Source: Patescibacteria group bacterium
GTDB lineage: Bacteria; Patescibacteriota; Minisyncoccia; UBA6257; GWB1-50-10
Assembly (NCBI GenBank): GCA_038065455.1
Contig: JBBTQX010000008.1
Location: 4,257 to 68,256 of the forward strand
Reading direction: 5' to 3'
DNA length: 64,000 nt
How positions within the stretch are numbered: position 1 is the first letter of the stretch; the number at the start of each line of letters is the position of its first letter. The notes beneath the pieces are model-generated. The model saw only the letters and a program-made list of their open reading frames with translations, was not told the DNA's origin and did not search any database. The position numbers were made by a program, and so were the translations under genes. Positions 677 to 58,257 of the stretch are shown here, in pieces.

Positions 677-774
677 TATGACTTGGCTAACAAACCCCGA
701 AGGAAAGCCTACGGCTTCCTACGGGGCAAGAAAATTAGAAAAATAAAGGTCAAAAAAATTAACGAATAAAAAAT

Positions 775-957
775 ATGATAAAACCAATTAACATAACTCC
801 TCTAAATACAACAAACACTCTGCAATACAAATGTGAAAAGTGTGGCGATTACGGAACAATTACTTTAAAGAACATTATTATCAATACTGATAATGCTGGA
901 AATTCATTGGTGCCTCTGGATGATTACGAATGTCAGAAATGTGGAGAAGAATTATGA
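775..957 (+). CDS. small zinc-ribbon protein (two CxxC pairs)
   Basis: 60 aa with CEKCGDYG...CQKCGEEL. Overlaps the next gene by 28 nt, so it sits in the operon. Confidence 0.5.
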   Translation: MIKPINITPLNTTNTLQYKCEKCGDYGTITLKNIIINTDNAGNSLVPLDDYECQKCGEEL

Positions 958-1367
958 ACACGACACTACAATTTATTATTACATTATTACTTAGCGGCGT
1001 TATCGCTGCCTTAGTATCAGCAGTAATGCAAAAAAGAAACGAAAAAGAGTCGCGCCTTTTTAACGCAAAACTGGAGGCATACAAAGAATTCGCTGCTCAC
1101 TTGGAAAGCAAGTTTGTTTCGCTCACAAAAGAAGGAAAAAGTTTGAATATTACGACACTGGCAGAAGTAAGTGCAAAATGCCTTTTGATTTCAAGCCCTA
1201 TTGTAAATAAAGAACTAAAAGCATTTCTTGTATATGTTAGCGAAGTTTATAAAAGATGCTGTGCGCCCGATTATGATAAGAATAAAGAATCGGAAATGTT
1301 TGATAAATTATGGAGTGACGCCGATAAAATTGAGGATTTAATGAGGCAAGATTTAGGATTTAAATAA
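930..1367 (+). CDS. small membrane protein (single N-terminal TM helix), hypothetical
   Basis: Hydrophobic segment FIITLLLSGVIAALVSAV. Tightly packed between the Zn-ribbon gene and hsdS. Confidence 0.45.
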   Translation: MSEMWRRIMNTTLQFIITLLLSGVIAALVSAVMQKRNEKESRLFNAKLEAYKEFAAHLESKFVSLTKEGKSLNITTLAEVSAKCLLISSPIVNKELKAFLVYVSEVYKRCCAPDYDKNKESEMFDKLWSDADKIEDLMRQDLGFK

Positions 1368-1369
1368 AT

Positions 1370-2593
1370 ATGACTTGGCCAATAAAAAAATTAGGGGAAA
1401 TTGCGGAAGTGGTTATGGGACAATCACCACCATCTTCCAGCTACAACGAGCAAGGTATTGGTTTGCCATTTTTTCAAGGCAAGGCGGAATTTGGAGAAAT
1501 TTATCCTATCCCAGTTAAATATTGCTCATCTCCAAATCGAATCGCGGAAGCGAACGATATTTTGATATCGGTTCGTGCTCCCGTAGGAAATATCAATATT
1601 ACAAAAGAAAAATCTTGTGTTGGTCGCGGTTTGGGAGCTCTCCGCGCAAAGGAGGACATTTTAAATCAAATGTTCCTATTCTATTTCATGAAAAAGAATG
1701 AAAATAATTGGTCTAGACTTTCAACTGGAAGCACATTCTCTGCAATCAAAGGAAGTAGTTTAAGAAATTTTGAAATCCCGGTTCCTCCTCTTGCAATCCA
1801 AACCCAAATTGTTGAGCGGTTGGATAAAATCGCCAAGGCGCAGAAATTGAATGATGGGCTTATCCAGAAAACTGACGAGCTTTTTCAATCGCTTTTGCAT
1901 AAGGAATTAAACCCCGTTAGAGATAGCAAACACTCTAACGGGGTAAATCCGGCCGGCCCCGCCGACGCTTCCGCCTTCGTTAAAACTTCGGCGGATAAAA
2001 AAGCTATGGCGGGCAAGAAGAATTGGGAGATTAAAAAATTGGGAGATATTATCAAACCACAGTATGGATACACTACATCGGCAAAAGACTCAGGAAATTA
2101 TAGGTTTATAAGAATTACCGACATTGGTGATGAGGGCGAATTAAGAGATTCTGATAAAAAATATGTGGCCATTAGCCAAGACGAAGCAAAAAGCTATCAA
2201 TTACGAAACGGTGATCTGCTACTGGCACGGACTGGCGCAACGTTCGGCAAGATTCTCTATTTCGAAGAAGGCGAACCGGCAATTTTTGCATCGTTTTTGA
2301 TTCGCTTAAACCCTGATACTTCAATTGATCCATTTTACATTTGGTTATTTTCTCGATCCCAGGACTATTGGCAACAAGCTAGATCGCTGATGACCGGCTC
2401 AGGGCAACCACAATTTAACGCAAATAGGCTAAAGCAGATTAAAATTCCTCTTCCACCCCTCGAAATTCAAAAGCAAATCGTCGCCAAACTTTCCGCGATT
2501 CAGAATTACAAAAAACAGCTTCTTGGACAAAAAGCAAAACTCAAAGAGCTTTTTGACTCGGCTTTGGCGAAATCAATGTCGAAAGATGCCTAA
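1370..2593 (+). CDS. hsdS: type I restriction-modification specificity subunit (HsdS), two target-recognition domains
   Basis: Duplicated architecture with conserved segments IPVPPLAIQTQIVERLD and IPLPPLEIQKQIVAKLS following each TRD, and a coiled-coil spacer. No hsdM/hsdR are seen in the window. Confidence 0.85.
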   Translation: MTWPIKKLGEIAEVVMGQSPPSSSYNEQGIGLPFFQGKAEFGEIYPIPVKYCSSPNRIAEANDILISVRAPVGNINITKEKSCVGRGLGALRAKEDILNQMFLFYFMKKNENNWSRLSTGSTFSAIKGSSLRNFEIPVPPLAIQTQIVERLDKIAKAQKLNDGLIQKTDELFQSLLHKELNPVRDSKHSNGVNPAGPADASAFVKTSADKKAMAGKKNWEIKKLGDIIKPQYGYTTSAKDSGNYRFIRITDIGDEGELRDSDKKYVAISQDEAKSYQLRNGDLLLARTGATFGKILYFEEGEPAIFASFLIRLNPDTSIDPFYIWLFSRSQDYWQQARSLMTGSGQPQFNANRLKQIKIPLPPLEIQKQIVAKLSAIQNYKKQLLGQKAKLKELFDSALAKSMSKDA

Positions 2594-2613
2594 AATTTTG
2601 ATAAAATAAATTT

Positions 2614-2829
2614 ATGCAAAGAACGCCGGTTTCATCAACAAATATTAGTTCAATTGGCTACGATCCACAGTCGGCTACTTTAGAGGTGGAGTTTACTTCG
2701 GGCGATGTGTATCAGTATTTTAATGTACCGGAGCGTTTATATGACGGATTGCTTAAGGCGGCGTCGCCTGGGCAATTTTTGAATATAAATATTATTCAAT
2801 ATGGCTATCGGTATCAGAAAAGAAGTTAA
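2614..2829 (+). CDS. KTSC domain protein
   Basis: IGYDPQSATLEVEFTSGDVYQYFNVPERLYDGLLKAASPGQFLN matches the KTSC (lysyl-tRNA synthetase C-terminal-like) domain consensus. Confidence 0.7.
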   Translation: MQRTPVSSTNISSIGYDPQSATLEVEFTSGDVYQYFNVPERLYDGLLKAASPGQFLNINIIQYGYRYQKRS

Positions 2830-3610
2830 TTTTATGTTTACGCCAAAAACACAAAGAATAAAAGACATCGCAGAAAATAAACAGGAAGTCATCAAACGAC
2901 TTGAAAGTGTTTTTGATGCAAACACTCGCGTTTATATTGATTATGCCAATGTCAGACCGTGGAGTGAAAAACTTGGGTGGCATATTGACCTAAAGCGTCT
3001 CAAACAGTTTTTGGATTCTTTCAGCACTATAGAGGCAATCAATTTCTATAATGGATATCTTGCGGGCAATGAGCGCTCGGAAAAAGAAAAATCAGAAGCA
3101 GAAAATTACAAATATATTCTTCGAACGAAGCCAGTCAAAATACTCAATTTTTCTATCAATGCCTCAAGCGTCTCGTCAGATTCGACGGTTCTTGTAAAGC
3201 AGTTTATTCGCCGCGCGTTACTGAAGAAGTACGAAGTTGGGACAATTGAATACTTAAATCAGCGTTTTGCCGACATGAACAAGAAGGGCGAATATTTTAT
3301 TGAGGATATGAAATGTAATTTTGATGTTGAAATCGGCGTTGATATGCTCCTTGATTGCGAACGAAACAGCGCGGAAACTTTTATATTATGGAGCGGAGAC
3401 AGTGATTTTGCCGATCCAATTAAAAAATTAATAGCCGCCGGCAAACAAGTTTATTTGTTTGCGACAGCCGGTAGAATTTCCAGCGAATTGAACGAACTTA
3501 GAGAAAACGGTCTCAAAATAGTAGATATTTTTGATCTCAAAGAGTTTATTTGTTGGTTAAAAGAATCGGCTTATAAAAGCACAAAAGACCCCGTTGCCGA
3601 GGCCCTTTAG
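2801..3610 (+). CDS. NYN/LabA-like nuclease domain protein (probable start at internal Met, ~2834)
   Basis: RVYIDYANV...CNFDVEIGVDML...ILWSGDSDFADPIKKL are NYN catalytic motifs. Overlaps the KTSC gene end. Confidence 0.75.
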   Translation: MAIGIRKEVNFMFTPKTQRIKDIAENKQEVIKRLESVFDANTRVYIDYANVRPWSEKLGWHIDLKRLKQFLDSFSTIEAINFYNGYLAGNERSEKEKSEAENYKYILRTKPVKILNFSINASSVSSDSTVLVKQFIRRALLKKYEVGTIEYLNQRFADMNKKGEYFIEDMKCNFDVEIGVDMLLDCERNSAETFILWSGDSDFADPIKKLIAAGKQVYLFATAGRISSELNELRENGLKIVDIFDLKEFICWLKESAYKSTKDPVAEAL

Positions 3611-9112: not shown

Positions 9113-10342
9113 TTATCTCTTTTTCTTCCTTAGAAAAGTGGGAATGTCCCAAGGCTCGTTCTTTTCCGACTTCGGCGAGGCCGATTTCGGACCCTTTTCG
9201 CTTTCCTCATCGAACATATCGTCATTCTTTTCGGCTTTATCCAATCCCGCTTCAGGTTTTACCTCCTTTTTCATTCCTTCGCCACTCATAAAAAGGGTTG
9301 GAATCATCGAACGCTGAGGAAAAACGCCGTTAAAGCCAGTCGCAATGACCGTCACTTTGATGGCCTTATCCTTCAAACTCCGGTCATGATAGGCGCCGAA
9401 GATGACGCGCGCATTCGAGTCCAGATTAGCCGATATGGCTTTCGCAATATCGTTGATTTCGGACATTTTAAGGTCTTTAGCGCCCGCTATACTAAAAACA
9501 ATACCCTTCGCGCCATCCAAAGAGACTTCCAAAAGCGGCGAATTGATTGCGGCATTCACGGCTTTAATGCTCCGATCCTGGCCCGAGGCCATACCAATAC
9601 CTATTAACGTGGTGCCGGCATCCTTCAATATCGTCTTGATATCGGCGAAGTCCACGTTAATGATACCCGGATTGTTTATAAGTTCGGTAATCGCCTGCAC
9701 CGACTGTTTCAAAATATCATCGATTGAAGCAAAAGCTTTCAAGATTGGCGTGTCTTTATCGATAAGGGAAAAAATACGGTCGTTCGGTATCACGACGAGC
9801 GCGTCCACTTTTTCTTTGAGACGGCTCAATCCTTCTTGAGCGATATTCATCCGTTGAGCGCCTTCAAAGGCGAAAGGTTTTGTGACGACTGCAACCGTAA
9901 GAATTCCTTTTTCCTTCGCGATTTCCGCAACCACTGCGGAGGCCGAAGTGCCCGTGCCGCCGCCCATGCCGGCCGTGATGAAAGCGATGTCAGTGCCTTC
10001 GAGCATCTCGCCGATTTCCGAACGATTCTCTTCGGCGGCCTGTTTGCCGATTTCCGGATTCATGCCCGCGCCCAAACCGCGCGTCAAAGCTTTCCCGATG
10101 TAAATCTTTTTATGCGCCGCCGCGTAATCCAAATCCTGAGCGTCGGTGTTTACCGCGACGAATTCGACGCCGCGCGGCCGGTCGCCATTCATCATTCGCG
10201 TAACGGCATTGCCGCCGCCGCCGCCCACGCCGATCACTTTGACACAGGTCAACCCGTTCTTACTTTCTTTGGGTTTCAGCTTAAGATTCTTTTTAATTTT
10301 TTTATGGTTCTTTTTTGACATTTCGGTTTTCAACTTTATCAA
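9113..10342 (-). CDS. ftsZ: cell division GTPase FtsZ
   Basis: GVGGGGGNAVTRMM tubulin signature and a full FtsZ core. Confidence 0.97.
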   Translation of the reverse strand: MIKLKTEMSKKNHKKIKKNLKLKPKESKNGLTCVKVIGVGGGGGNAVTRMMNGDRPRGVEFVAVNTDAQDLDYAAAHKKIYIGKALTRGLGAGMNPEIGKQAAEENRSEIGEMLEGTDIAFITAGMGGGTGTSASAVVAEIAKEKGILTVAVVTKPFAFEGAQRMNIAQEGLSRLKEKVDALVVIPNDRIFSLIDKDTPILKAFASIDDILKQSVQAITELINNPGIINVDFADIKTILKDAGTTLIGIGMASGQDRSIKAVNAAINSPLLEVSLDGAKGIVFSIAGAKDLKMSEINDIAKAISANLDSNARVIFGAYHDRSLKDKAIKVTVIATGFNGVFPQRSMIPTLFMSGEGMKKEVKPEAGLDKAEKNDDMFDEESEKGPKSASPKSEKNEPWDIPTFLRKKKR

Positions 10343-10360
10343 GTGTAATGAAAATAAAAA

Positions 10361-11578
10361 TTAAGGCAATAAATTGCGGAGGAATTTCTTGACCGCGCCT
10401 ATACCCGAAACGGGCGTCTCATTTTCCGTCTTGCCCCAAATGACAAGCCCCGCCGCTACGGAAAATTCCGGATCATCCATCATCTCCCGATGAGCCGGAT
10501 TCAAAATCTCGAATTCGGAAAGATTCGGAAAGCCGATTTGAACCGGAAGTTTGAGTTCCTGCTTCACGAGATCGGCCAAGCCGGCCAGTTTTACTCCCCC
10601 GCCCGTCAAAACTGCGCCAGCCGGAAAACGAGCATCGCGCCCGATTGTTTTCAATTCCCCGGCGACCAAGTCGAGTATTTCTATCAGCCGGCTTTCGATT
10701 ATCTCCGCCAAAAAATGACGGGAAACCTCACCTCCACTCTTCCCATCCACCTCCGAGAGTTTTATCGTCTCCCGCCGATTGATATCTTTCGCCAGCGCGC
10801 AACCGAAAGAAGTTTTGAGCTTTTCCGCCACCTCGACGGAAATTTTTAATCCAATTGCGATGTCATTCGTAACATAACTAGAACCCACGGGCAGACTTCG
10901 AACGTGGAGTATCTTACTATCCTCATAGACCGCCAAAGTCGTCGTGCTCGCGCCAAAATCAATAACAAAACTGCCGAGTTCTTTTTGTTTTTTTGAAAGA
11001 ACCGAACGGGCGGCGGCCAAAGGATTGAAAATCACTCCGCCTACGCCGACGTTCAAACGCTCCAGAGTTTTCAAAAGAAGGCTTACTTGGGGTAAAAATC
11101 CTTCCATAATAAGCGTCGAAACCTCCAGCCGACTGCCGTTCATTCCCAAAGGATTAGAAATATCTCCCACATCGTCTACGAGGTATTCCTTTATTATATT
11201 ATGAAGCACGATTGAATTAGGCAGAATCTTTACCGCCTGGGAAAACTGAATCGCCCGCTCGATATCTTCGGTTTGAATCTCCTTGTCGCCCCGCGCGACA
11301 GCCGCCACCCCCCGGGAAACCCGGGCTTTCACCCGCTCGCTGTTCGCGTTCACAAAAATATTCTGAACGGCTTTCTTGGATATTTTTCTGAGGTCAACAA
11401 AAAGATTGTGGAGCACCTTGGTGGATTCTTCAACATCTACCAACACGCCTTTTCGAAAACCGGCCATCGGCTGTTTGAAAACCGAGATGACCGAAAGGGT
11501 CCCGTCCTTCTTCACTTCCGCCACTATCCCCTTTACCTGGGACGTGCCGATATCCAACCCGGTAATGATTTGAGACAT
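10361..11578 (-). CDS. ftsA: cell division protein FtsA
   Basis: Actin-like ATPase beginning ITGLDIGTSQVKGIV. Lies immediately upstream of ftsZ. Confidence 0.93.
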   Translation of the reverse strand: MSQIITGLDIGTSQVKGIVAEVKKDGTLSVISVFKQPMAGFRKGVLVDVEESTKVLHNLFVDLRKISKKAVQNIFVNANSERVKARVSRGVAAVARGDKEIQTEDIERAIQFSQAVKILPNSIVLHNIIKEYLVDDVGDISNPLGMNGSRLEVSTLIMEGFLPQVSLLLKTLERLNVGVGGVIFNPLAAARSVLSKKQKELGSFVIDFGASTTTLAVYEDSKILHVRSLPVGSSYVTNDIAIGLKISVEVAEKLKTSFGCALAKDINRRETIKLSEVDGKSGGEVSRHFLAEIIESRLIEILDLVAGELKTIGRDARFPAGAVLTGGGVKLAGLADLVKQELKLPVQIGFPNLSEFEILNPAHREMMDDPEFSVAAGLVIWGKTENETPVSGIGAVKKFLRNLLP

Positions 11579-31663: not shown

Positions 31664-31667
31664 TAAT

Positions 31668-31700
31668 AGGTGGTGTCTTCAAAGACACCACCTATTTCAT
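31668..31700. terminator. bidirectional terminator hairpin
   Basis: aggtggtgtct-tcaa-agacaccacct (11-bp stem) between convergent recG and pheS-like. Confidence 0.6.
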
Positions 31701-31719: not shown

Positions 31720-32889
31720 CTAACGGACTTCTGCCTTGAACTGCTTTTTCGTTTCTTCAATAATCTTGTTCTGAATGGGTGTAATTTCTTCCAGAGTCAG
31801 CGTGCGCTCGTTGGAACGATAAACAATGCGGTAGGTATAGCTCATCTTCCCCGCGCCGAATTTAGCCGCGTTCTCATATTTGTCCAAAAGCGAAACCTGC
31901 TCCACCAAATCGCCGCCGATGTCGCGAATGAGATCAAAATAATCGTTGGGAACGAAGCCGCTGTTTACGACAAATGAGATATCCCTCGTAATGGGCGGAT
32001 ACTTGCTGACCTCCGTGAATTTCTTGCCGAGTTGGAGCTGTTTCGTTATGCGGGGGTCTTCCGACCATAAGAGGCGTATATCTGGCAAACTCATACTCAC
32101 TATCGCCAGGCGTTCCAAACCAAAGCCGAAAGCCCAGCCGGTATAATTGGACGAATCAACCCCGAGCTTTTCGAGCACGCTGCCCTTTACCACGCCGCAG
32201 CCGACCACCTCCACCCATTTGCCTTCTATTTCAACCTCCATTTCCAAAGACGGTTCTGTGTAAGGGAAGGTGTCTTTGTTCAGGCGATATTTGACGTTCG
32301 GCCCGAATACCGCGATTGCGATATTGCCCAGAGCTTCCTCCAATTCTTTTATCCCTATCGTTTTTAACGATTTGGGCGCCAGATACCAGCCGTCGATTTG
32401 GTGGAAAACGTTCATATGATTCCGGTCGATTTCATCCCGGCGATAAACTTTGCCGAAGCTGAAAGCGCCCACCGGCTCGTTTTTCGCAATTCGTTTTTTT
32501 ATATCCTCGTCCAAAAGATAGTAGTACCACATAATCGTGGTGTGAGTGCGCAAAATATTCCTATCATCCACATAATACGTGTCCGAGCGGCTTCGGGCCG
32601 GATGATCGACAGGAAAATCGAACAAATCGAAGCTTATGCTCGCCGGCACGATTTCGGGAGTCTTGATTACATCCAAATCCTTGAAATACGGGCTTTTGAG
32701 TATCCGACTCACGATTTCGGCAATCGGATTCCCCTTCATCCGCGAAAGATCCGGCATATCCATGAATCTTTTCATACGCAAACCGTCCGCATCCGTTCTT
32801 TTTTGGAGCTCGGCTATCAGCATTTTCTCTTCAAGCATATCAATTAATATTTCCGCCATAATTAAAACATCATACCAATTTTCTATCAA
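31720..32889 (-). CDS. single-chain (mitochondrial-type, monomeric) phenylalanyl-tRNA synthetase: class II catalytic core fused to a C-terminal FDX-ACB anticodon-binding domain
   Basis: Motif 3 GWAFGFGLERLAIV. C-terminal KYPPITRDISFVVNSGFVPNDYFDLIRDIGGDLVEQVSLLDKY..YRIVYRSNERTLTLEEI closely matches the FDX-ACB domain of monomeric mitochondrial PheRS. No pheT nearby. Confidence 0.7.
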   Translation of the reverse strand: MIENWYDVLIMAEILIDMLEEKMLIAELQKRTDADGLRMKRFMDMPDLSRMKGNPIAEIVSRILKSPYFKDLDVIKTPEIVPASISFDLFDFPVDHPARSRSDTYYVDDRNILRTHTTIMWYYYLLDEDIKKRIAKNEPVGAFSFGKVYRRDEIDRNHMNVFHQIDGWYLAPKSLKTIGIKELEEALGNIAIAVFGPNVKYRLNKDTFPYTEPSLEMEVEIEGKWVEVVGCGVVKGSVLEKLGVDSSNYTGWAFGFGLERLAIVSMSLPDIRLLWSEDPRITKQLQLGKKFTEVSKYPPITRDISFVVNSGFVPNDYFDLIRDIGGDLVEQVSLLDKYENAAKFGAGKMSYTYRIVYRSNERTLTLEEITPIQNKIIEETKKQFKAEVR

Positions 32890-32978
32890 ATATCAAACAA
32901 CAAAAAATCTGCCGAAATGACAGACTTTTTGATTCTTGTTGCGGGGGCAGGATTTGAACCTGCAGCCTTCTGGTTATG

Positions 32979-33700
32979 CTTACCACTACAATTTTCATTG
33001 CTTCCATCCGTCAACTGACGAAGAATTTGTGGTCTGGACTATCCTTTGTTCCTAAAATAGGAACCCTACCCTCTAGTCTCTACACCTTCTCTAACACAAT
33101 GTCGGAGCTTGGCTCGGGATTGTCTGTCTCATTGCTGAGATTGGGATTTCCCCGAATTTGGCAGGTTATCTTTCCAACAATTACTCATCGGAACGCCCTA
33201 TGCATTTCATTTGAACACGAACTAATGGTATACTACCAGAAGATGCCTAAATCTCTCACACGAAGCGAAAGTGTTTATAAATTCCTTAATCCTAAAGGTG
33301 ATCCGTTTTCCTATAGTCCGAAAAGTAATAGATCTCTCGAAATCATCGGATTAATTCTTTGGATAACAGAAGGTGATAAAACCCAACTTTCTCTTTCTAA
33401 TGGTAATTTTTCGATTATCAAACAATACCTAACTTTTTTGAGAAAGGTATGCAAGTTAAAAGAAGAAAAAATCAAAGCTGTTATCCACTGTCATGATTCT
33501 TTATCTTACGAATCTTGTTTGTCTTATTGGTCAAAAATAACCAATATCCCAAAGAACCGTTTTACCAAGCCATATATCAAAAAGGATCACGGTGGAGCCA
33601 GAAAATACCCCTATGGAATAATCAGGATTGCAGCAACTAATATGAAATTAATTCGTATTTTTAATGAACGCTTGAAAGATTTCGGTCTTTCAAGAAGTTG
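32979..33700 (-). other. group I-like intron inserted after U33 of the tRNA(CAU)
   Basis: 5' exon ends in U, the intron ends in G (..GTAAG|CAT), and the position in the anticodon loop matches known bacterial tRNA group I introns. Intron core P1-P9 not verified. Confidence 0.5.
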
Positions 33701-33701
33701 A
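33225..33701 (+). CDS. putative LAGLIDADG-like homing endonuclease, encoded antisense to the tRNA intron (ORF open from 32976)
   Basis: The 241-codon ORF exactly spans the intron on the opposite strand. LEIIGLILWITEGDKTQLSLSNGNFSI resembles a single LAGLIDADG motif. The start codon is uncertain. Confidence 0.4.
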   Translation: MVYYQKMPKSLTRSESVYKFLNPKGDPFSYSPKSNRSLEIIGLILWITEGDKTQLSLSNGNFSIIKQYLTFLRKVCKLKEEKIKAVIHCHDSLSYESCLSYWSKITNIPKNRFTKPYIKKDHGGARKYPYGIIRIAATNMKLIRIFNERLKDFGLSRS

Positions 33702-33824: not shown

Positions 33825-33896
33825 GGCTGGGTAGCTCAGTGGTAGAGCAGACGTTTCATAAGCGTCGGGTCGTGAGTCCGATTCTCACCTCAGCCA
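33825..33896 (+). tRNA. tRNA-Met/Ile2 (CAT), elongator type
   Basis: Cloverleaf GGCTGGG../..CTCAGCC-A, anticodon loop UUCAUAA. T-loop UCCGAUU is unusual with C at position 55. No CCA encoded. Confidence 0.75.
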
Positions 33897-33904
33897 CAAA
33901 ATAA

Positions 33905-50054: not shown

Positions 50055-52502
50055 TTATCGCTCTCTAAAGATACGGCGCCTAAGAAGAGGGGTACTGTCA
50101 GCCGAAATTGTTTTTTCCGCTACACAGGAATTCCCATCCGAATCGGTTACCGTGAGCGAAACATCTAATGGCATCTTTTTAACGGTTTCTTTCGTCGGAG
50201 TAACCGAGGGGTTTTTTGGCTCGGCATCAAGAAATTCCCAAAAAATGCTCCCGGGCGTACTGGAACGATAATCCGTAGTATTGGTAAATGTTACGACTGA
50301 TTCTTTCGCAAATTTAAGGGGCGTCCAAGTAAAATCTACTAACGGATAATAACGCGCCGGAGTTGTCATTGTTGCGGGGTTGGCAGAATCTTCCCAATCG
50401 GAGAATCCGGCGATGCCGTCCGAAGCCTGAACCGACACAAAAAATTCCGTACTGGCTCCTATATTGGCTATCGGGTTGTTTAACCTTCCAAACCGGTCGC
50501 TCCCTACTGAAACGGTGTCAATCGTCAAATTGTCGGAAGATTTAATTATTTTTATATCGGCGGACGTTTGTGGGTTGCCATCCGGATCGGAATAATCCCA
50601 AGTTACCCGATAGAAAGGATTTGCTTGGCACCAAGCATCCGCCTCCCGGATAATCTGTACGTTAGAAACGACTGGCGGTTGATTTAAAATAACGGCGCTC
50701 ACTGTGCAATTACTCGCTTTACTGACAGTACATTCCGGCTTGGTGAACGCCAGCCAGCCAACGATATCCCCGCCCCAGGCCGAACCTACAAAATTAATTG
50801 AATCAAAAGAAACTCCATATAAACTGCCGTCTGCCGCTGTTCCACCCAAACTCACCCAGCCGTCCCAATTCGGATTGCCGGTATTTTTCGGCGCGAGAAA
50901 ACGCGCCCAGCCGGTAACGGCGCCGGTATTAAGATCTTTTCTTGCTTCGCAAATCCCTGATGGACAGTCAGCTAAATCGCTCTTATTAAAAGAGAGCCAG
51001 CCATAATCTTCATTGCTATCAATCGCCGCCCAAGCGGAACCCGAGAAAAGCCCGGCGCGGTCAATCTGAACGCTGTATTGAGGATCGCCGGTATTCCATG
51101 CCGGAATTTGATAATCGGAATTGAAATTCACCCACCCAACGCCTTTTCCATCGATTGTCGCCCAAGCATTACCCCGAAGGGAAAGCGCCATATTCAGATT
51201 TACGGAAACTAGTGTGGAATATTCGGAGTAAGAACCGCCAAAATCAGCTCTCACGCGATAGGTATATGTATGACCAAACGCCAAATTATCATCGAGATAC
51301 TCCGCTCGAGCTTTAGCAGACGGCGGAAGAGCGATTTTCCCCGCCAGAGTTTCAGGGCCACCGCCAATAGACCGGTAAATATTGTAATTCCCAGAGTAGA
51401 GCGGATTCGGAAAAGTGTTATCCCAAGAAATTCTGACATTGCCCTTGGTTCCATTCACATAATAAATCTGGGCCGTCGGATTCTGGGGCGCATTCGCGAT
51501 TGTAACGGAAGAAATATTTGAAAAATCGGAACAGCCGCCGCTTGTCGTACAACCCCGCACTTTATAGGAATACTTCTGATTGGTGATAATACTGGAATCT
51601 TCATAATGAATCGTTCCACCGTTAGCCGTTTTCCCAAGAAAATTGGGTGAACCACCGAAAGGAGCGCGATGAATCTCGTAGTAATCCTGACCGGTGCCCG
51701 CCGTCCAACTCAAATTAACTTGACTTGGCCGAAATTGGTAAGGCGCGATAAGATCGGTCGGTGTTGTCGGCACCCCGATAGGCGTTGAAGGAATTTTATC
51801 GGAATAAATTTTATCTCCAGTCGCGCAGCCGTAATCGCTTTCAAAACTCCTAACTTGGTAATAGTAAACGCCCGCCGGGCTAATATTCCCGGTATAGAAA
51901 TAGTGTCCGTTAATATCTTTGTTGCCAACGAGAGAAGTATAAAAATAAGTAAGATTTGAATCTGTCGTTCCGCGCCAAATTTCGAATCCGCCATACTGTG
52001 AGCTTGGCGGTGTTGCGTCATCCCAAATCAAATCAACTTGGCTGTCACCGCTCTTACCGGTTACAACAAGATTTGACGGATTAGTTGGTTTGGTTAAGAT
52101 TATTGTTTTTATCGTCAACGGACTTGAATCAACCCAATTTGAAACAGTTCCGTTGCTATTGTCCACCGCTTGAATGTGATATCGGTAATTCGAAAAGGAG
52201 TTGACGGGATTAATAGGTAAATTTAAATGTTCGGCGGTCAGGTTGGGCGTGGTCGCGACGGGTTTTACGCCGGTGTTGAAATCCCCAGCCGTCGTGTATT
52301 CGATAGAATAGGTAACGGTCGAAGGATTCCCATTCGCTTCCCAATTCAAATCAATCGCGCAGGCTGATTTGGCAGTGATATTAAAACCCACCGGCGGCTG
52401 AACTGCCGCGGAAACTAAAGTCGCCGAGGAGACGAAAAATCCCGAGAATAAAAAGAGAAGTATCGCGCGCTTGCTCATTGAATTAATTATAGCAAAATTC
52501 AT
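50055..52502 (-). CDS. large secreted surface protein with Fn3-like modules and GW..SFN-type repeats
   Basis: Signal peptide, repeats AWATIDGKGVGWVNFNSD / AWAAIDSNEDYGWLSFNKSD / GDIVGWLAFTKPEC. Shares the repeat type with 17829..18812. Confidence 0.6.
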   Translation of the reverse strand: MNFAIINSMSKRAILLFLFSGFFVSSATLVSAAVQPPVGFNITAKSACAIDLNWEANGNPSTVTYSIEYTTAGDFNTGVKPVATTPNLTAEHLNLPINPVNSFSNYRYHIQAVDNSNGTVSNWVDSSPLTIKTIILTKPTNPSNLVVTGKSGDSQVDLIWDDATPPSSQYGGFEIWRGTTDSNLTYFYTSLVGNKDINGHYFYTGNISPAGVYYYQVRSFESDYGCATGDKIYSDKIPSTPIGVPTTPTDLIAPYQFRPSQVNLSWTAGTGQDYYEIHRAPFGGSPNFLGKTANGGTIHYEDSSIITNQKYSYKVRGCTTSGGCSDFSNISSVTIANAPQNPTAQIYYVNGTKGNVRISWDNTFPNPLYSGNYNIYRSIGGGPETLAGKIALPPSAKARAEYLDDNLAFGHTYTYRVRADFGGSYSEYSTLVSVNLNMALSLRGNAWATIDGKGVGWVNFNSDYQIPAWNTGDPQYSVQIDRAGLFSGSAWAAIDSNEDYGWLSFNKSDLADCPSGICEARKDLNTGAVTGWARFLAPKNTGNPNWDGWVSLGGTAADGSLYGVSFDSINFVGSAWGGDIVGWLAFTKPECTVSKASNCTVSAVILNQPPVVSNVQIIREADAWCQANPFYRVTWDYSDPDGNPQTSADIKIIKSSDNLTIDTVSVGSDRFGRLNNPIANIGASTEFFVSVQASDGIAGFSDWEDSANPATMTTPARYYPLVDFTWTPLKFAKESVVTFTNTTDYRSSTPGSIFWEFLDAEPKNPSVTPTKETVKKMPLDVSLTVTDSDGNSCVAEKTISADSTPLLRRRIFRER

Positions 52503-53560
52503 GCCTTTTTGACGGAATAGTTTTCAGCGGCAAACTTATACTGTTCCAAAAAAATCTTCTTGAATGGCTGGATAGAATTCAATTCATAAAAGACGAGGGT
52601 TGCTTCCCGATAGTCGCTTTCTTCCACACTCCGGTAAGAAAGTGGCGCTAAATTATTAGCCAAAAGAATGGCATTCGCGATTAATCGTCCAGTACGCTTG
52701 TTGCCATCTTCAAAGGGCTGGATATAGCTTATGCCCAACAAAGCGAAAAAAGCTTTGGCATAAGGATCCTTCTGTTTCCCTATCGAGGCAATGAAAGACT
52801 CAACTGCCTCCTCTATCTGAAATCTGTTGTCCAGAGGCATGTATTTGGATCCAGCAACTCCGACTGCGGAACTGCGCCAACCCGTCTTTACGTTCAAATT
52901 TTTAACCAAAAGCTTGTGAACTTCCCTCATATTAACCTTGGTCAGTTTCTTAAATTCCTTGACGTTATTAAAAACCAGGTTAAACGCTTCCTTATGATTC
53001 AATATCATTTGTGCTTCTTCTCTCCCGTGGCCAGCCGCTTTCTCTCCCCTAATCAAAAGTTTTTCCGTATCCAGCAAGGTATATGTATTACCTTCTATTT
53101 TGGAAGACTTCCAAGACAGTTCTATCACAAACCTTTCCAGTTCTTTTTTGGATATCGCAGGAGAAAGATTTTTTATTTTTTTCCCATACTCCAAAGTTTT
53201 AACCTCCAAGAGGTTCTTTTCTTCTTTTTGGAAAGGGTTAAGCTTAAAATATTCAAGCAGATTAAAATTGAACTTGGAATCGCCGAATCTCTTATCGGGT
53301 TCTCCGAAACAATATTCCTTTGCGTTAATCTCCGCGCTAAAGCGTCCTGGAACGGCTATTTTATAAACGGTGGATCTGCCGAATCCGGAAACCTCCAAAA
53401 ACCCGACCCGACTCATCTCCGAAAGGCTTCTTTTTACCGTAACCAAAGATGTTTTCTCGCCGGATTTTAAAAGTAAGTCATGGACGCCGGATGATTGCTG
53501 ATTTCCGTTCTTTAAAAACAGAAGAATTATCAACTGTTGGTTTTTGGTTAATTTATCCAT
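52499..53560 (-). CDS. Fic/Doc family protein with N-terminal wHTH
   Basis: Fic motif HPFEDGNKRTGR. Confidence 0.85.
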   Translation of the reverse strand: MDKLTKNQQLIILLFLKNGNQQSSGVHDLLLKSGEKTSLVTVKRSLSEMSRVGFLEVSGFGRSTVYKIAVPGRFSAEINAKEYCFGEPDKRFGDSKFNFNLLEYFKLNPFQKEEKNLLEVKTLEYGKKIKNLSPAISKKELERFVIELSWKSSKIEGNTYTLLDTEKLLIRGEKAAGHGREEAQMILNHKEAFNLVFNNVKEFKKLTKVNMREVHKLLVKNLNVKTGWRSSAVGVAGSKYMPLDNRFQIEEAVESFIASIGKQKDPYAKAFFALLGISYIQPFEDGNKRTGRLIANAILLANNLAPLSYRSVEESDYREATLVFYELNSIQPFKKIFLEQYKFAAENYSVKKA

Positions 53561-53564
53561 TTCT

Positions 53565-53612
53565 TTCGTATCTTTTTAACCATATAATCGTATCATATTG
53601 ATACGATTATTT
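53565..53612. repeat. 47-nt repeat containing the palindrome aatcgtatcatattgatacgatt (copy 1; copy 2 at 58784..58830)
   Basis: Near-identical to ttcgtatctttttgactaaataatcgtatcatattgatacgattatt at 58784. Confidence 0.7.
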
Positions 53613-53807
53613 AAAATGGGGTTAGAACTTATATGTTTTTTCCGATCTTTTTTCCAGCGCGATGATAAAAATGCTGTTTTTGTCCGAAACGCGGAAGATA
53701 ACACGCATATTCCCCTTTCTGACTCGGAATAAATCATCCCGCCCTTTGAGTTTTTTAATATCTAAGGTGGCAATATCGCTTTTATGGCAAAAAGTATATC
53801 GTGATCT
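53576..53807 (-). pseudogene. RelE/ParE-like toxin gene remnant (N-terminally truncated, no start codon, run-on C-terminus)
   Basis: Minus-strand frame reads ..LDIKKLKGRDDLFRVRKGNMRVIFRVSDKNSIFIIALEKRSEK.., collinear with LDLKKLRGGGDIFRIRKGSMRIIFRILGNGDVFILAVERRAEK of the intact toxin at 58868..59107. Begins directly at the AbiEii stop codon. Confidence 0.6.
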
Positions 53808-54563
53808 CTATGCAATTTGTCTTTTCATTTCGTCTTCGAGCATCCGGCTGAAATCCCGGATTATGGCCTGCTGATCGGCCGGCAGAAACGCCCCCAATTC
53901 TCCGTGAAAATCTATTTCTCTCGCGTTTTTTGTTATTTCATCCTTCACATCCGCCAACTTCCTTTTTTGTTCGGATGAAAGCATTCTCTTTCTCATCAAA
54001 AAATACAAATCATAAAAGTCGCGGGGCTTCTTCCGTTCCAAAAGAGCACCGAATATTTTTTCTTCAACCAGCTCCATTTGCGACAGATGAACCGCCGTAT
54101 AGGGGGGAATGAAATCGCTTGCCACGCTGTCTATCTCGGCCTTGATTTCCCTGCCATTTCGGGCGGAAACGTTTATTTCTACCCCCACCGGCGGATAGTC
54201 GAGCGCGCGGAGGGTCGCCAATCCGAAATAACCGCCGCTCGTCGTTCCGAAGCGTTCGCCGAGTTCCACGCGAACGCCAAAATTTTCCATGGTAGCCAGA
54301 ATCTTGATAAATAAGCTTTCCACGAAATATTTCGTTTTATTCGAATGAACCTGTGTCAGTGAAAAATCCAAATCCTCGGAAAAACGCGGACTGCCATAAA
54401 TGATGCGTAGAGCCGTGCCGCCCTTGAAAAGCAATTTTTCCGATTCCGGCAGTTTGTAAAGCTCGCTTAAAAAAATGTGCTGGAAATATTCCCGGATGAT
54501 ATTCGGAAAAACGCCTGTCTGGCATTGGGCGGCCAATTTTTCCAAACTTTCCGATGAAATCAT
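53808..54563 (-). CDS. AbiEii-type nucleotidyltransferase toxin (type IV TA)
   Basis: LLFKGGTALRIIYGSPRFSEDLDFSL is the NTase motif of AbiEii/DUF1814. Confidence 0.75.
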   Translation of the reverse strand: MISSESLEKLAAQCQTGVFPNIIREYFQHIFLSELYKLPESEKLLFKGGTALRIIYGSPRFSEDLDFSLTQVHSNKTKYFVESLFIKILATMENFGVRVELGERFGTTSGGYFGLATLRALDYPPVGVEINVSARNGREIKAEIDSVASDFIPPYTAVHLSQMELVEEKIFGALLERKKPRDFYDLYFLMRKRMLSSEQKRKLADVKDEITKNAREIDFHGELGAFLPADQQAIIRDFSRMLEDEMKRQIA

Positions 54564-55159
54564 TTTAGAGTCCTTTTTATAATACCTATAAGTTCCCGGT
54601 TTTGAAACAATGAGGCGTATTGAATCGCTTTATTCGGATTTATTCTTTCCTTATTGAACCGCGACAGCGGCTTCAATCTATCCAGCATCCTAAAGTAGTT
54701 GGTGTCAACGAAAGCTTTTTCCGGACTGGCGATGAAAAACCCCATTCCTTTTTGTTTTACAATGCCATAGCCGGCGAACGCCGTTTTTTTCACTCGCCGA
54801 TATGAATAAATCTTGCCTAGAATTTTGAAGCGCCGGGGATTTTTCGAGGTGATCGAGGTAATCTCGTAAACGTTTTCCGGAATGACGCGATGGTAAGACA
54901 AGGCCAATTCGAGAGAAATATAGGATGGTTCGCACATTTTGTTCGCGATGAAAAATTCCGTCGGCAAAGCGTCGGGGAAAGCGTAAATCCCCCGTTTCAA
55001 CCGGACAATGAAGCCTTTCTTGGTATACCGATAAAGAAGGAAACTGGCCGCAATTTTGGAACTCCCGAACAACCGGCAAACATCCAGAGCAGAGAAGACA
55101 AGTAGTTTTTTCCCTTTTATTTCCTTGTTAAAACTATGCCAATTCACTAATTTAGCCAT
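54560..55159 (-). CDS. AbiEi-type antitoxin/transcriptional regulator
   Basis: Overlapping start/stop with AbiEii. N-terminal wHTH-like segment. Confidence 0.6.
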   Translation of the reverse strand: MAKLVNWHSFNKEIKGKKLLVFSALDVCRLFGSSKIAASFLLYRYTKKGFIVRLKRGIYAFPDALPTEFFIANKMCEPSYISLELALSYHRVIPENVYEITSITSKNPRRFKILGKIYSYRRVKKTAFAGYGIVKQKGMGFFIASPEKAFVDTNYFRMLDRLKPLSRFNKERINPNKAIQYASLFQNRELIGIIKRTLK

Positions 55160-55239
55160 ATTGCTAACTTACTGGAATGACGTTAAAAAGTCAAGCAATT
55201 ACCGAGATTAATGGTTGTTAATGGGTCAGCCACCATTGT

Positions 55240-55668
55240 TTGTTCTCGGTCTTCCTACCCCTCTTAATGTCTGTTCAAGGTCAAATTTTTTCACCGTACT
55301 GCCTATCCAATTATCACCGCCATAAGGATTCCCTTTATCTTACGAAGTCGGACTTCGTAAAATTCGATAAAATGGGTGGAAAAACAAGGAGAAGGGAAAG
55401 GATGAAAATAAAATTTAATGACGGCTGGGCTTTTGCGATCGTGAACGGCCGTTTGGCTGAAATTCACTTTGATAAAAAATACGGCCCTTGGGGCCATTGC
55501 TATGTTAATAAAGAAGAATATAAAACAAAGCGAGAACAAAAATGGATTAAAGAAGACACCCTAAAATATCAATTTTCTTATAGGAGCGGTTATTACTTTG
55601 ATAAAATTAGGAAAATAAGATTTAAAATACCAAGCCGACAGAAATTATTTTCTGATTCAATTTTGTAA
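55240..55668 (+). CDS. hypothetical protein (probable true start near 55372)
   Basis: ORF; upstream part overlaps the 20-bp palindrome. Confidence 0.3.
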   Translation: MFSVFLPLLMSVQGQIFSPYCLSNYHRHKDSLYLTKSDFVKFDKMGGKTRRRERMKIKFNDGWAFAIVNGRLAEIHFDKKYGPWGHCYVNKEEYKTKREQKWIKEDTLKYQFSYRSGYYFDKIRKIRFKIPSRQKLFSDSIL

Positions 55669-55670
55669 GA

Positions 55671-55916
55671 TCACTTCGGATGCGTTCTGATATCAAGGAG
55701 AATATAAGTATTACCTTCAATTAAAAAATAAAAGCGGATATTTCTATCTACTCTGGCCTGCCAAATCCCGCGGGCCTCTTCGTATTTCTTTGCGCGCAGA
55801 GAAGGGTGCCGCAAATCCCGAAGAAGAAAACTAACTTGTTTATAGAATTTATTTCTAACTTCCGGAGAAAACTTTTTCAAGCTCTCCTTAAATCCGATAT
55901 AATACCAAACGATCAT
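55671..55916 (-). CDS. RelE/ParE-family toxin
   Basis: KKYEEARGIWQARVDRNIRFYFLIEGNTYILLDIRTHPK is a RelE-fold C-terminus. Start overlaps the antitoxin stop. Confidence 0.7.
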   Translation of the reverse strand: MIVWYYIGFKESLKKFSPEVRNKFYKQVSFLLRDLRHPSLRAKKYEEARGIWQARVDRNIRFYFLIEGNTYILLDIRTHPK

Positions 55917-56128
55917 TACCTCTCTAATGAGTATCTAAGAGCTTTTACGGAAGAAAATGGCCCTTTTATCTTCTCTTTCTTTACTTCTCTGATCACCTTA
56001 TCCAAATCAACGTCTAATTTTGTATATTTTTTTTTCACTACACGCAAAAACCGCTCATACTCTTTACGAGGAATAGCCACAAGCTCTTCGCCTTTGGTTA
56101 TTTTTTGAGGAATAGTAATAGTAGTCAT
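55916..56128 (-). CDS. putative antitoxin of the RelE/ParE-like toxin
   Basis: 70 aa, directly upstream, overlapping ATGA junction. Confidence 0.5.
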   Translation of the reverse strand: MTTITIPQKITKGEELVAIPRKEYERFLRVVKKKYTKLDVDLDKVIREVKKEKIKGPFSSVKALRYSLER

Positions 56129-56244
56129 GCATTTACCTTACCATGGTCAAACAAACGAAATCAAACTGTCAAAAGGAGGGCGGATTCACAAAAAACACCG
56201 TCACCCCGAAACAAAAGCGCAGAAAATTATCTCTCATCTTCATT

Positions 56245-57375
56245 TATTATGCATAAGGCCACATACATATTGCACTCGGTGAAGCCAGCGCTTCACCATG
56301 AAAATCCATTGTAAATATGCCGGCATCAAGGGGAGTATGACTGTCTATCGGGACGCGCTACGCTACCGGTATATGATCCGACCCCAAGCGTTGCGGAAGG
56401 CAAAAATCCTCGCCTTCGCTGAAAAGCACGGCACCTTGACTGCGCTCGAGGCCTTTGAGGTGAAGCGGCGCACGTTCTTTGACTGGAAAAAGAAGTGGGT
56501 AGCGGGCGGGAAGATTCCCGAGACACTCAACGGGAAATCACGGGCGCCGAGGACAAAACGGAAGCGCCGGTGGTCCGATGAGGTGATTGCCGAGATCAAG
56601 CGGCAGCGCTGGGAGCATCCCAATCTCGGCAAGGATAAACTGCATCCGCTTCTTGCCGAATTCTGCGCCGAGAAGAAGCTGGCTTGCCCTCAGTCAAAGA
56701 CCATCGGACGGTTGATCGCGGATCTGGGCGGATTGCGGATGCACCCCAAAAAGATCTCGCACTTCGGAAAAATCAAGATCGCCAACCGTCAAAAAGTGTT
56801 GAGAAAACCTATGGATTTCAAGGCCGAGTATCCTGGCCACTGCGTGGCCCTGGACACCATTGAGAAGCACGTTGGGGGCAGACGCTATTACGTGATCACG
56901 TTTGAAGACCTGTTTACACGATTTTGCTTCGCCTGGGAAACGACCTCGCACGCATCGCTTGCGGCAAAAGAGTTTTTTACGCTTTGCCTTAAGGTTTTTC
57001 CGTTCCCGATTTCTTTTGTCCTTACGGACAACGGCAGCGAGTTCATGAAACACTTTGACGCAGAGCTCCGCCGGCTCCACCTCGTCCATTATCATACTTA
57101 TCCGAAGACGCCAAAGATGAATGTGCACATGGAGCGGTTCAATCGCACCGTCCAAGACGAGTTTGTGGATTATCACACAGCTGATCTGCAAACGCCGGAT
57201 GCGTTCAACCGCAAGCTCGTGGACTATCTCGTCTGGTACAATACGAAGCGTGTGCACTATGCTTTCAAAAACAAATTATCACCCGTGCAGTTCATGCTAC
57301 AATTACCACAACTAGCAGTCGCAAAAATGCCCACCGAGTGCAAAAGTGGGTGGCCTCATACATATTATAGCAAAA
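56245..57375 (+). mobile_element. IS481-family insertion sequence with ~30-40 bp imperfect terminal inverted repeats
   Basis: Left end tatgcataaggccacatacatattgcactcggtg vs reverse complement of right end tatgtatgaggccacccacttttgcactcggtg. Internal DDE transposase. Visibly more G+C-rich than the flanks. Confidence 0.65.
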
Positions 57376-57437
57376 TGACCAAATTTATGGTAAAATTAAA
57401 GTATGGAGAAATATTTTTGGGATACGAATCCCGATAA
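56298..57437 (+). CDS. IS481-family DDE transposase (integrase core)
   Basis: ALDTIE ... VLTDNGSEF ... ERFNRTVQDE form the D,D(35)E triad, with an N-terminal HTH. The ORF reads through the right IR into the flank. Confidence 0.75.
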   Translation: MKIHCKYAGIKGSMTVYRDALRYRYMIRPQALRKAKILAFAEKHGTLTALEAFEVKRRTFFDWKKKWVAGGKIPETLNGKSRAPRTKRKRRWSDEVIAEIKRQRWEHPNLGKDKLHPLLAEFCAEKKLACPQSKTIGRLIADLGGLRMHPKKISHFGKIKIANRQKVLRKPMDFKAEYPGHCVALDTIEKHVGGRRYYVITFEDLFTRFCFAWETTSHASLAAKEFFTLCLKVFPFPISFVLTDNGSEFMKHFDAELRRLHLVHYHTYPKTPKMNVHMERFNRTVQDEFVDYHTADLQTPDAFNRKLVDYLVWYNTKRVHYAFKNKLSPVQFMLQLPQLAVAKMPTECKSGWPHTYYSKMTKFMVKLKYGEIFLGYESR

Positions 57438-57618
57438 ATTGGATTTTAAAACAAATAAAAAATATATTATAGAACGTATCCTGGAAATGGGCGACGAAGA
57501 GGCGGTTCGTCGGCTTTTCGGCATATTTTCAAAAAAAGATATCCTTGAAGTTGTTGGGAACAACCGCCGAATTTCCCCAAAAAGCGCTAATTATTGGAGG
57601 TTGTTGCTAACTCGCTAA
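57403..57618 (+). CDS. small conserved protein (FWDTNPDK family), probable partner of the downstream NTase; paralog at 58450..58680
   Basis: MEKYFWDTNPDKLDFKTNKKYIIERI vs LFWDTDPQKIDLKKNAQYVIERI in the paralog. Confidence 0.45.
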   Translation: MEKYFWDTNPDKLDFKTNKKYIIERILEMGDEEAVRRLFGIFSKKDILEVVGNNRRISPKSANYWRLLLTR

Positions 57619-57630
57619 CCCCGCACAAAA

Positions 57631-58257
57631 ATGGACTTCCATAAAGAAATTCTTCCGGCTGGCACGTTGGAAACATTTTCTAAATTGTCCCATTCTTCCT
57701 TGATTGGAAATTTCTATTTAGCCGGCGGGACGGGTCTGGCGCTTCAACTGGGACACCGTTTTTCAAACGATCTGGATTTTTTTACGCCTAAAAAATTCAA
57801 CGAGGAAACAACGCTTCAGGAAATAATTTCTTTGGGAAAATTAAGACTTGAAAAGAAAGAAGCACAAGCCATTGTGTGCCAATTAGATGAAACGAAACTG
57901 TCGTTTTTGGGATATGGATATCCCCTACTTGAACCGCTTAAACATTTTGACGGCATATCTGTGGCTGAAATATCTGATATCGCCTGTATGAAAATTGACG
58001 CCATCGCCAGTCGGGGAACAAAGAGAGATTTTATTGATGTGTACTTCGTTATGAAAGAGATAATGCCACTCAATGAGATACTGGCTAATTTCAAAAAAAA
58101 ATATGCTAAGTTGAATTATAATACCGTGCATATCAAAAAAAGTTTGGTATATTTCAACGACGCAGAAAATGACGCAATGCCGCGGATGATAAAGCCGGTC
58201 TACTGGGAGAAAGTGAAAGAAACATTCGAAAGCGAGGTAAAAAAACTCGGACTATAG
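57631..58257 (+). CDS. AbiEii-like nucleotidyltransferase (DUF1814-type)
   Basis: FYLAGGTGLALQLGHRFSNDLDFF is the NTase GS..D.D motif. Confidence 0.7.
   Translation: MDFHKEILPAGTLETFSKLSHSSLIGNFYLAGGTGLALQLGHRFSNDLDFFTPKKFNEETTLQEIISLGKLRLEKKEAQAIVCQLDETKLSFLGYGYPLLEPLKHFDGISVAEISDIACMKIDAIASRGTKRDFIDVYFVMKEIMPLNEILANFKKKYAKLNYNTVHIKKSLVYFNDAENDAMPRMIKPVYWEKVKETFESEVKKLGL

Follow-up and report, generated by a model that had tools for sequence, protein, structure and literature searches.

The gene considered here lies on the reverse strand of a 64-kb stretch of contig JBBTQX010000008.1 (at its full length, the window) from a Patescibacteria (candidate phyla radiation, CPR) genome, and it most likely encodes an editing-free, single-chain, housekeeping phenylalanyl-tRNA synthetase (PheRS) of a large Patescibacteria clade. 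Reviews describe three forms of PheRS, of which the single-chain form is found only in mitochondria, and they treat the heterotetramer as common to all prokaryotes (PMC3275996; PMC11580382). We consider it probable that the fused gene is the housekeeping and sole PheRS gene of this Patescibacteria lineage, in which the single-chain enzyme would have replaced the canonical (alpha-beta)2 enzyme.

A single-chain PheRS of CPR bacteria is apparently undescribed in the literature searched. No paper was found there that linked such an enzyme to CPR or Patescibacteria, and PheRS receives no more than a brief mention in three studies (Kantor 2013, Meheust 2019, and Mukai 2017). The single-chain architecture is already visible in databases, in the 'alpha chain' name given by JGI, in Pfam domain pairs, and in the model for the neighboring family SrmL.

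Domain architecture, motifs, and predicted fold

The initial annotation of this DNA had placed a PheS catalytic core and an FDX-ACB domain in one chain, and Pfam found both: PF01409 (tRNA-synt_2d; residues 49 to 284, E = 1.7e-55) and PF03147 (FDX-ACB; residues 295 to 389, E = 6.1e-24), in the numbering of a 389-residue reading frame that is evaluated below. There were no further domain matches, and a Pfam search for PF02912, the N-terminal domain of PheS, gave no match in the window protein. An N-terminal presequence is also absent from it. In tblastn the catalytic module was 33% identical to residues 107 to 327 of Escherichia coli PheS, and the C-terminal domain, the equivalent of domain B8 of PheT, was 30% identical to residues 699 to 794 of E. 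coli PheT. The C-terminal domain also matched positions 692 to 798 of the TIGR00472 (pheT_bact) profile. The E. coli PheS reference was verified to be identical to PDB entry 3pco_A, and the PheT reference was checked against 3pco_B.

All of the class II and Phe-pocket motifs of the canonical (alpha-beta)2 PheRS (TIGR00468 plus TIGR00472; structures 3PCO and 1PYS) are shared with the window protein. However, the canonical enzyme is built from subunits of ca. 330 and ca. 800 amino acids, whereas the window protein is one polypeptide of 379 amino acids that lacks the tRNA-binding coiled coil at the N terminus of PheS and the PheT domains B1, B3/B4 (editing), B5, and B6/7. Domain B2 of PheT is absent from the window, but some relatives have it as a mini-domain, either on its own or fused.

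The motifs HPAR, LRTHTT, YRRDxxDxxHxxxFHQIDG, FPYTEPS, GCG, and GWAFGFGLERL are all kept in the window protein and are invariant in 49 family members. The counterparts of the Phe-pocket motif FPYTEPS are FPFTEPS in E. coli, FPFTHPS in human mitochondrial PheRS, and HPYT in SrmL. Motif 3 is preceded by a segment of the bacterial type, DSSNYTG.

The AlphaFold model of the window protein (pLDDT, 90.5; pTM, 0.85) resembles human mitochondrial PheRS over its full length. In Foldseek searches the best full-length matches were the closed-state structures of that enzyme (3CMQ and 5MGH; TM score, 0.77; root mean square deviation, 3.3 Å over ca. 388 columns). The same model gave a TM score of 0.58 with the open, tRNA-bound state (3TUP), and canonical PheS chains reached ca. 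0.55 over the core only.

The PheS-type class II module, the conserved PheS C-terminal segment, the 14-residue linker, and the PheT-B8-type anticodon-binding domain would together constitute an active PheRS, presumably a monomer. If the protein works like human mitochondrial PheRS, Phe-AMP would be made in the catalytic module, which would then pass Phe on to tRNA-Phe; recognition of the GAA anticodon would fall to the C-terminal domain, and tRNA binding would swing the protein from a closed to an open conformation. There is no B3/B4 editing domain, and therefore only the active-site pocket would safeguard fidelity; the enzyme would be expected to lack editing in vivo. Loss of PheRS editing is already known in Mycoplasma (PMC7373986).

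Relation to mitochondrial, SrmL, and phage-borne proteins

The expected resemblance to mitochondrial PheRS was confirmed in sequence as well as in the predicted structure. A phmmer search of PDB placed human mitochondrial PheRS first (E = 1.2e-57), followed by the best canonical PheS (9e-36), and by PheT chains that matched the C-terminal domain only (1e-08). The motifs that the initial annotation had quoted, SKYPPITRDISFVV, DLIRDIGGDLVEQVSLLDKY, and YRIVYRSNERTLTLEE, match human mitochondrial PheRS residue for residue in this alignment. Human FARS2 and yeast MSF1 ('PheRS-M' in AARS Online; 3CMQ and 3TUP) have the same single chain of a PheS module and an FDX-ACB (B8) domain with the same junction, and like the window protein they lack the PheS N-terminal coiled coil, domains B1 to B7, and the editing site. 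Identity between the mitochondrial enzyme and the window protein is ca. 42% over the C-terminal 200 residues.

Unlike mitochondrial PheRS, the window protein has a bacterial host, as had been proposed, and has neither a targeting peptide nor the mitochondrial-type insertion between motifs 2 and 3. Its pocket reads FPYT rather than FPFT, and it belongs to a clade of its own with bacterial fused forms, some of which are accompanied by a B2 mini-protein. The canonical bacterial segment DPxxY[ST]G before motif 3 is kept by the CPR, Oligoflexia, and SrmL proteins but is lost in most mitochondrial-type sequences, in which there is a deletion of two residues. On the model for mitochondrial PheRS (TIGR00469, pheS_mito) the window protein scored 246.1 bits, below the cutoff of 258.35. 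The description 'mitochondrial-type' thus holds for architecture and not for descent, because of the subcutoff TIGR00469 score, the state of the DPxxY[ST]G segment, and the clustering with bacterial fused forms.

The CPR, Oligoflexia, SrmL, phage, and eukaryote-like forms all have the fusion junction (DIRxxWSxDxR, linker, SK[YF]PP) at one position, and this speaks for one origin of the fusion between the catalytic module (CAM) and B8. Linker length varies among them: 14 to 15 residues in bacterial forms (14 in the window protein), 15 to 16 in phage forms, and 18 to 19 in eukaryote-like forms. In bootstrapped neighbor-joining (NJ) trees the CPR core was recovered with 100% support, CPR plus Oligoflexia and related branches with 83%, and all bacterial fused forms with 77%, and the bacterial fused forms, SrmL included, were separate from the mitochondrial and phage group. 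The trees were star-like in the mitochondrial and phage part and were rooted on one canonical PheS, and therefore they were not used to decide the direction of descent between bacterial and mitochondrial forms. It is possible, although on balance doubtful, that the CAM-B8 fusion arose once, in bacteria, and that the Patescibacteria enzyme is the free-living housekeeping representative of a lineage that also yielded the mitochondrial PheRS and the PheRS-M-like proteins of huge phages.

The PheRS-M-like proteins encoded on huge-phage-like contigs (P0155 and P0138/P0276) have the architecture of the window protein and a similar size (348 to 354 amino acids). However, the phage-borne proteins P0138, P0155, and P0204 pass the TIGR00469 cutoff (261 to 308 bits), and the phage-contig proteins carry the mitochondrial-type deletion of two residues and cluster with the mitochondrial group. 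Two sites of phage-type genes are positions 8001 to 9065 of L081, a 160-kb contig, and positions 8001 to 9047 of L083, a 340-kb contig. The genes around these sites are densely packed and mostly unannotatable, and they include genes for a phage metallopeptidase, a dNMP kinase, and a dCMP deaminase as well as an adjacent PcfJ-like gene. When a viral collection was scanned with exact peptides of the phage-type proteins, it gave no match.

These phage-borne relatives, and the fact that the best PDB matches are to human mitochondrial PheRS, would be accommodated if the window gene were a recent horizontal gain of a eukaryotic FARS2-like or huge-phage gene, or if it were assembly contamination. This is extremely unlikely. 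The synteny with recG and gatA is conserved in many CPR genomes, the CPR clade is apart from the mitochondrial and phage group, the protein keeps DPxxY[ST]G in its bacterial state and a linker of 14 residues rather than the eukaryote-like 18 to 19, and it has no presequence. Furthermore, a scan of the viral collection for the CPR-type fused PheRS was negative. Judged from these sequence comparisons, the window protein appears to be a distinct bacterial branch rather than a recent import, mitochondrial-type in architecture and fold.

Another possibility is that the protein is no PheRS and that, like SrmL, the 'PheS-related mystery ligase', it is a ligase derived from PheS that acts on a different substrate or acceptor. 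SrmL has the same two-domain architecture, junction, and 14-residue linker, and it falls in the same bacterial fused NJ clade as the window protein (the node with 77% bootstrap support). SrmL (NF051887) is also the best NCBIfam match of the window protein by E value. However, the match of 246.9 bits is below the cutoff of 300, and true SrmL proteins score 375 to 415. Furthermore, the motifs of SrmL have diverged (DSISRS, HPYT, PHQVDI, LEAG, and GLASG), whereas the corresponding motifs of the window protein (HPAR, FPYT, FHQIDG, GCG, and GWAFG) keep the canonical PheRS residues; HPAR, FPF, FHQxEG, GCG, and AFG are altered in SrmL. A function like that of SrmL is therefore very unlikely for the window protein.

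Four SrmL representatives (P0212, P0247, P0257, and P0258) have FPF changed to HPY, have lost HPAR, and have GCG changed to E[AC]G and AFG to A[SLM]G. These changes in the pocket and the catalytic motifs suggest that the substrate of SrmL is one other than Phe.

Distribution, constraint, and possible exclusivity of the fused gene

The initial annotation had regarded a single-chain form as rare in bacteria. This view did not hold. At least 324 GTDB species representatives of Patescibacteria encode a fused PheRS, at least 532 metagenome contigs carry the family, and related fused proteins are also encoded by Oligoflexia, by SrmL-bearing bacteria, and by huge phages. The best 80 GTDB matches are all from CPR and are 65 to 88% identical to the window protein; they come from Brenner-, Zambryski-, Doudna-, Yanofsky-, Giovannoni-, Nomura-, and Vogelbacteria and from Minisyncoccia/Paceibacterota. 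Clustering at 50% identity collapses the close CPR family to essentially one representative. After it, the nearest relatives comprise SrmL, mitochondrial-type PheRS, the short forms encoded by phages, and a small number of bacterial paralogues.

A single-chain form also appears to be present in a CPR lineage with a different genetic code. In the gene for a divergent fused PheRS (P0129; L085, positions 9463 to 10833), 13 TGA codons are in frame and line up with conserved glycines, those of motif 3 among them; the database protein had been called with TGA as Trp. The position of these codons therefore points to genetic code 25 and to a CPR lineage of the Gracilibacteria/Absconditabacteria type.

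The fused gene is under strong constraint. The dN/dS ratio is ca. 0.05, with dN below that of RecG and GatA, and in syntenic genome pairs PheRS is 78 to 83% identical, compared with 66 to 68% for GatA and 54 to 66% for RecG. Each of the 160 related loci that were compared has one intact copy (160/160).

One locus reverses the order of identities seen in every other syntenic pair. In L044, from an uncultured 'Saccharibacteria' bin (ERP119705_co3_567), RecG and GatA are 78% and 82% identical to the window proteins and PheRS is only 69% identical. This discordance may mean that PheRS alleles have passed from one CPR lineage to another.

Several observations weigh against the fused gene being the sole, housekeeping PheRS gene. 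The data cover 64 kb of the host genome, or ca. 8% of a typical CPR genome. A canonical pheS-pheT pair is present in some Paceibacteria/Minisyncoccia, that is, within the same class (PMX_810_sub and PMX.50), and in other CPR (Mukai 2017). The window protein reaches the curated cutoff of none of the PheRS models, that for canonical PheS included (TIGR00468; 165.9 bits, cutoff of 237.45). In addition, fused proteins with intact PheRS motifs are encoded by an Oligoflexia bacterium, on an ordinary chromosome (P0125), and by a bacterium that is Bacteroidota-like and not of the CPR (P0126), whose genomes are expected to carry a canonical PheRS too, and NCBI curates SrmL, a 'mystery ligase' family, with the same architecture. 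Because P0125, P0126, and SrmL share the architecture, architecture alone is no proof of a housekeeping role.

These observations would suit an accessory paralogue, with canonical pheS-pheT elsewhere in the genome and the fused gene as a second copy, for example one that is resistant to stress, antibiotics, or analogues. We regard this as unlikely. CPR genomes are strongly reduced, and it would be unusual for a redundant aminoacyl-tRNA synthetase to vary less than GatA does over hundreds of species. Two relatives with canonical genes lack the fused gene: Minisyncoccus archaeiphilus PMX_810_sub, whose annotation table is complete, has canonical pheT and pheS and no second gene with PF01409 or PF03147, and among the genes listed in the annotation table of PMX.50 the only such genes are a canonical pheS-pheT pair. 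It is possible that the fused and canonical forms are mutually exclusive.

Searches around the fused genes likewise did not reveal a canonical partner. In the 64-kb window, tblastn with the E. coli PheS and PheT sequences matched nothing except the fused gene itself, and the infC-rpmI-rplT operon, an anchor for pheST, was not found in the window or in related loci. No B3/4, B5, CLM, or PheS N-terminal domains were found in the window or in 1.46 Mb around 161 fused genes. The screen of the 1.46 Mb has weak power because a pheT at a random site in each genome would yield only ca. 1.6 hits.

The only PheT-like genes that adjoin fused PheRS genes encode stand-alone B2 domains (tRNA_bind, PF01588), which may be remnants and a sign of the loss of PheT. 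Such an open reading frame (ORF), of 128 to 173 amino acids, is directly upstream of the fused gene in 15 of the 160 loci (L010 to L014, L017 [positions 2525 to 2881], L022, L023, L026, L055, L092, L106, L115, L141, and L153), and in L028, P0062, P0109, and P0113 the B2 domain is fused in frame at the N terminus of PheRS. The best 120 database matches to B2 (P0280 to P0399) are all B2-only proteins of 128 to 173 amino acids; full-length PheT is missing from this list, which is saturated by the mini-proteins. Several of these have locus tags that adjoin those of the fused PheRS gene. The occurrence of B2 both as a separate protein and as part of the fused chain would tie it functionally to the single-chain PheRS, which in some sister lineages may work with, or fused to, the mini-protein.

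The names of these proteins obscure the arrangement. In JGI the fused PheRS is an 'alpha chain' and the B2 mini-protein is a 'phenylalanyl-tRNA synthetase beta chain'; NCBI names, where given, are 'hypothetical protein'. Therefore, surveys based on KEGG Orthology (KO) or on markers would miss the PheRS or wrongly report both subunits, and in inventories that use KO the 'beta chain' name could hide that full-length PheT has been lost. The GTDB bac120 marker set includes TIGR00468 and TIGR00472 and would be affected likewise.

Gene model, surroundings, and implications

The ORF list contains a 389-amino-acid frame that begins at an in-frame TTG at position 32889 (31720 to 32889, reverse strand), as the initial annotation had stated. 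However, the coding sequence is most likely the 379-amino-acid form (Table 1) because all 120 of the closest homologues, among the matches listed in the database search, begin at the internal ATG. The TTG form is most likely an extension made by the ORF caller. The 379-amino-acid protein is 100% identical to database protein P0001, 'hypothetical protein AAB377_02815 [Patescibacteria group bacterium]', which is from a metagenome-assembled genome.

Table 1. Window positions of the fused PheRS gene, its parts, and nearby signals (residues are numbered in the 379-aa form)
Feature	Position	Strand	Description and basis
Single-chain PheRS coding sequence	31720..32859	-	379 aa; ATG start at 32859, stop codon 31720-31722; ORF list, translation check
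Class II catalytic module, PheS homologue	32038..32745	-	Residues 39-274; PF01409, tblastn
HPAR motif	32593..32604	-	H86-R89; conserved in canonical PheS, lost in SrmL; motif alignment
Class II motif 2 region YRRDEIDRNHMNVFHQIDG	32389..32445	-	Residues 139-157; counterpart of E. coli YRNDYDQTHTPMFHQMEG; motif alignment
Phe-pocket motif FPYTEPS	32248..32268	-	Residues 198-204; motif alignment
Class II motif 3 GWAFGFGLERL	32107..32139	-	Residues 241-251; holds the Ala aligned to E. coli PheS A294; motif alignment
Fusion junction	32008..32082	-	PheS-core end DIRLLWSEDPR (260-270) and 14-aa linker ITKQLQLGKKFTEV (271-284); junction alignment
FDX-ACB domain, PheT domain B8 equivalent	31723..32007	-	Residues 285-379; PF03147, TIGR00472, tblastn
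Promoter-like site	32869..32896	-	TTGATA-16-TATGAT, 10/12 matches, with TG; consensus scan only
Hairpin	31665..31696		Perfect 14-bp stem; lies in the 56 bp that separate recG from the PheRS gene, which converge; terminator scan and the sequence itself

The promoter-like site ends 10 nucleotides upstream of the PheRS ATG and overlaps the alternative TTG start. It is weak evidence for a promoter because the consensus scan found no more such sites in the PheRS region than in shuffled sequence. The hairpin is likely a bidirectional terminator.

The window is a stretch of normal CPR chromosome, with the PheRS gene among housekeeping genes. This gene lies between recG, which is convergent with it, and the genes for tRNA-Met, tRNA-Asp, gatA, and ligA. 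The window also encodes hisS, cysS, pth, ftsZ/ftsA, dnaB, recR, a CCA-adding enzyme, nrdJ, and type IV pilus genes. A forward-strand ORF of 241 amino acids (32976 to 33701), a putative gene, lies between those for PheRS and tRNA-Met (33825 to 33897) and has no Pfam or NCBIfam match.

Two other parts of the window differ in character. Positions 50055 to 58257 are likely an accessory or mobile stretch, which encodes a Fic-domain protein (52499 to 53560) followed by an 815-amino-acid fn3/Ig-repeat protein (50055 to 52502), two AbiEii toxin-like genes (53808 to 54563 and 57631 to 58257), and an rve-type integrase (56298 to 57437). The first two of these genes (353 and 815 amino acids; 50055 to 53560, reverse strand) resemble a pheS-pheT pair in size and order and were ruled out as such by their Fic and fn3/Ig-repeat domains. 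Positions 14 to 3610 have a low GC content (0.35 at positions 1 to 2000, compared with ca. 0.46 in the rest of the window) and encode a type I restriction-modification specificity subunit (1370 to 2593) between two NYN-domain proteins.

If the fused gene is the housekeeping PheRS gene of its lineage, a whole bacterial radiation with a single-chain, editing-free PheRS would overturn the rule that bacteria always have the (alpha-beta)2 form. The origin of mitochondrial PheRS (FARS2) would become directly testable by phylogeny. The enzyme would also represent a natural case of lost proofreading of Tyr and m-Tyr in free-living or episymbiotic bacteria, and it would offer a minimal bacterial PheRS scaffold for engineering. 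If, in addition, the tentative proposal of a single bacterial origin of the fusion is true, then the single-chain, editing-free PheRS would not be a eukaryotic invention, the optional B2 mini-subunit would be a previously undescribed subunit arrangement, and a 379-amino-acid enzyme would serve the translation of Phe codons in a large part of bacterial diversity.

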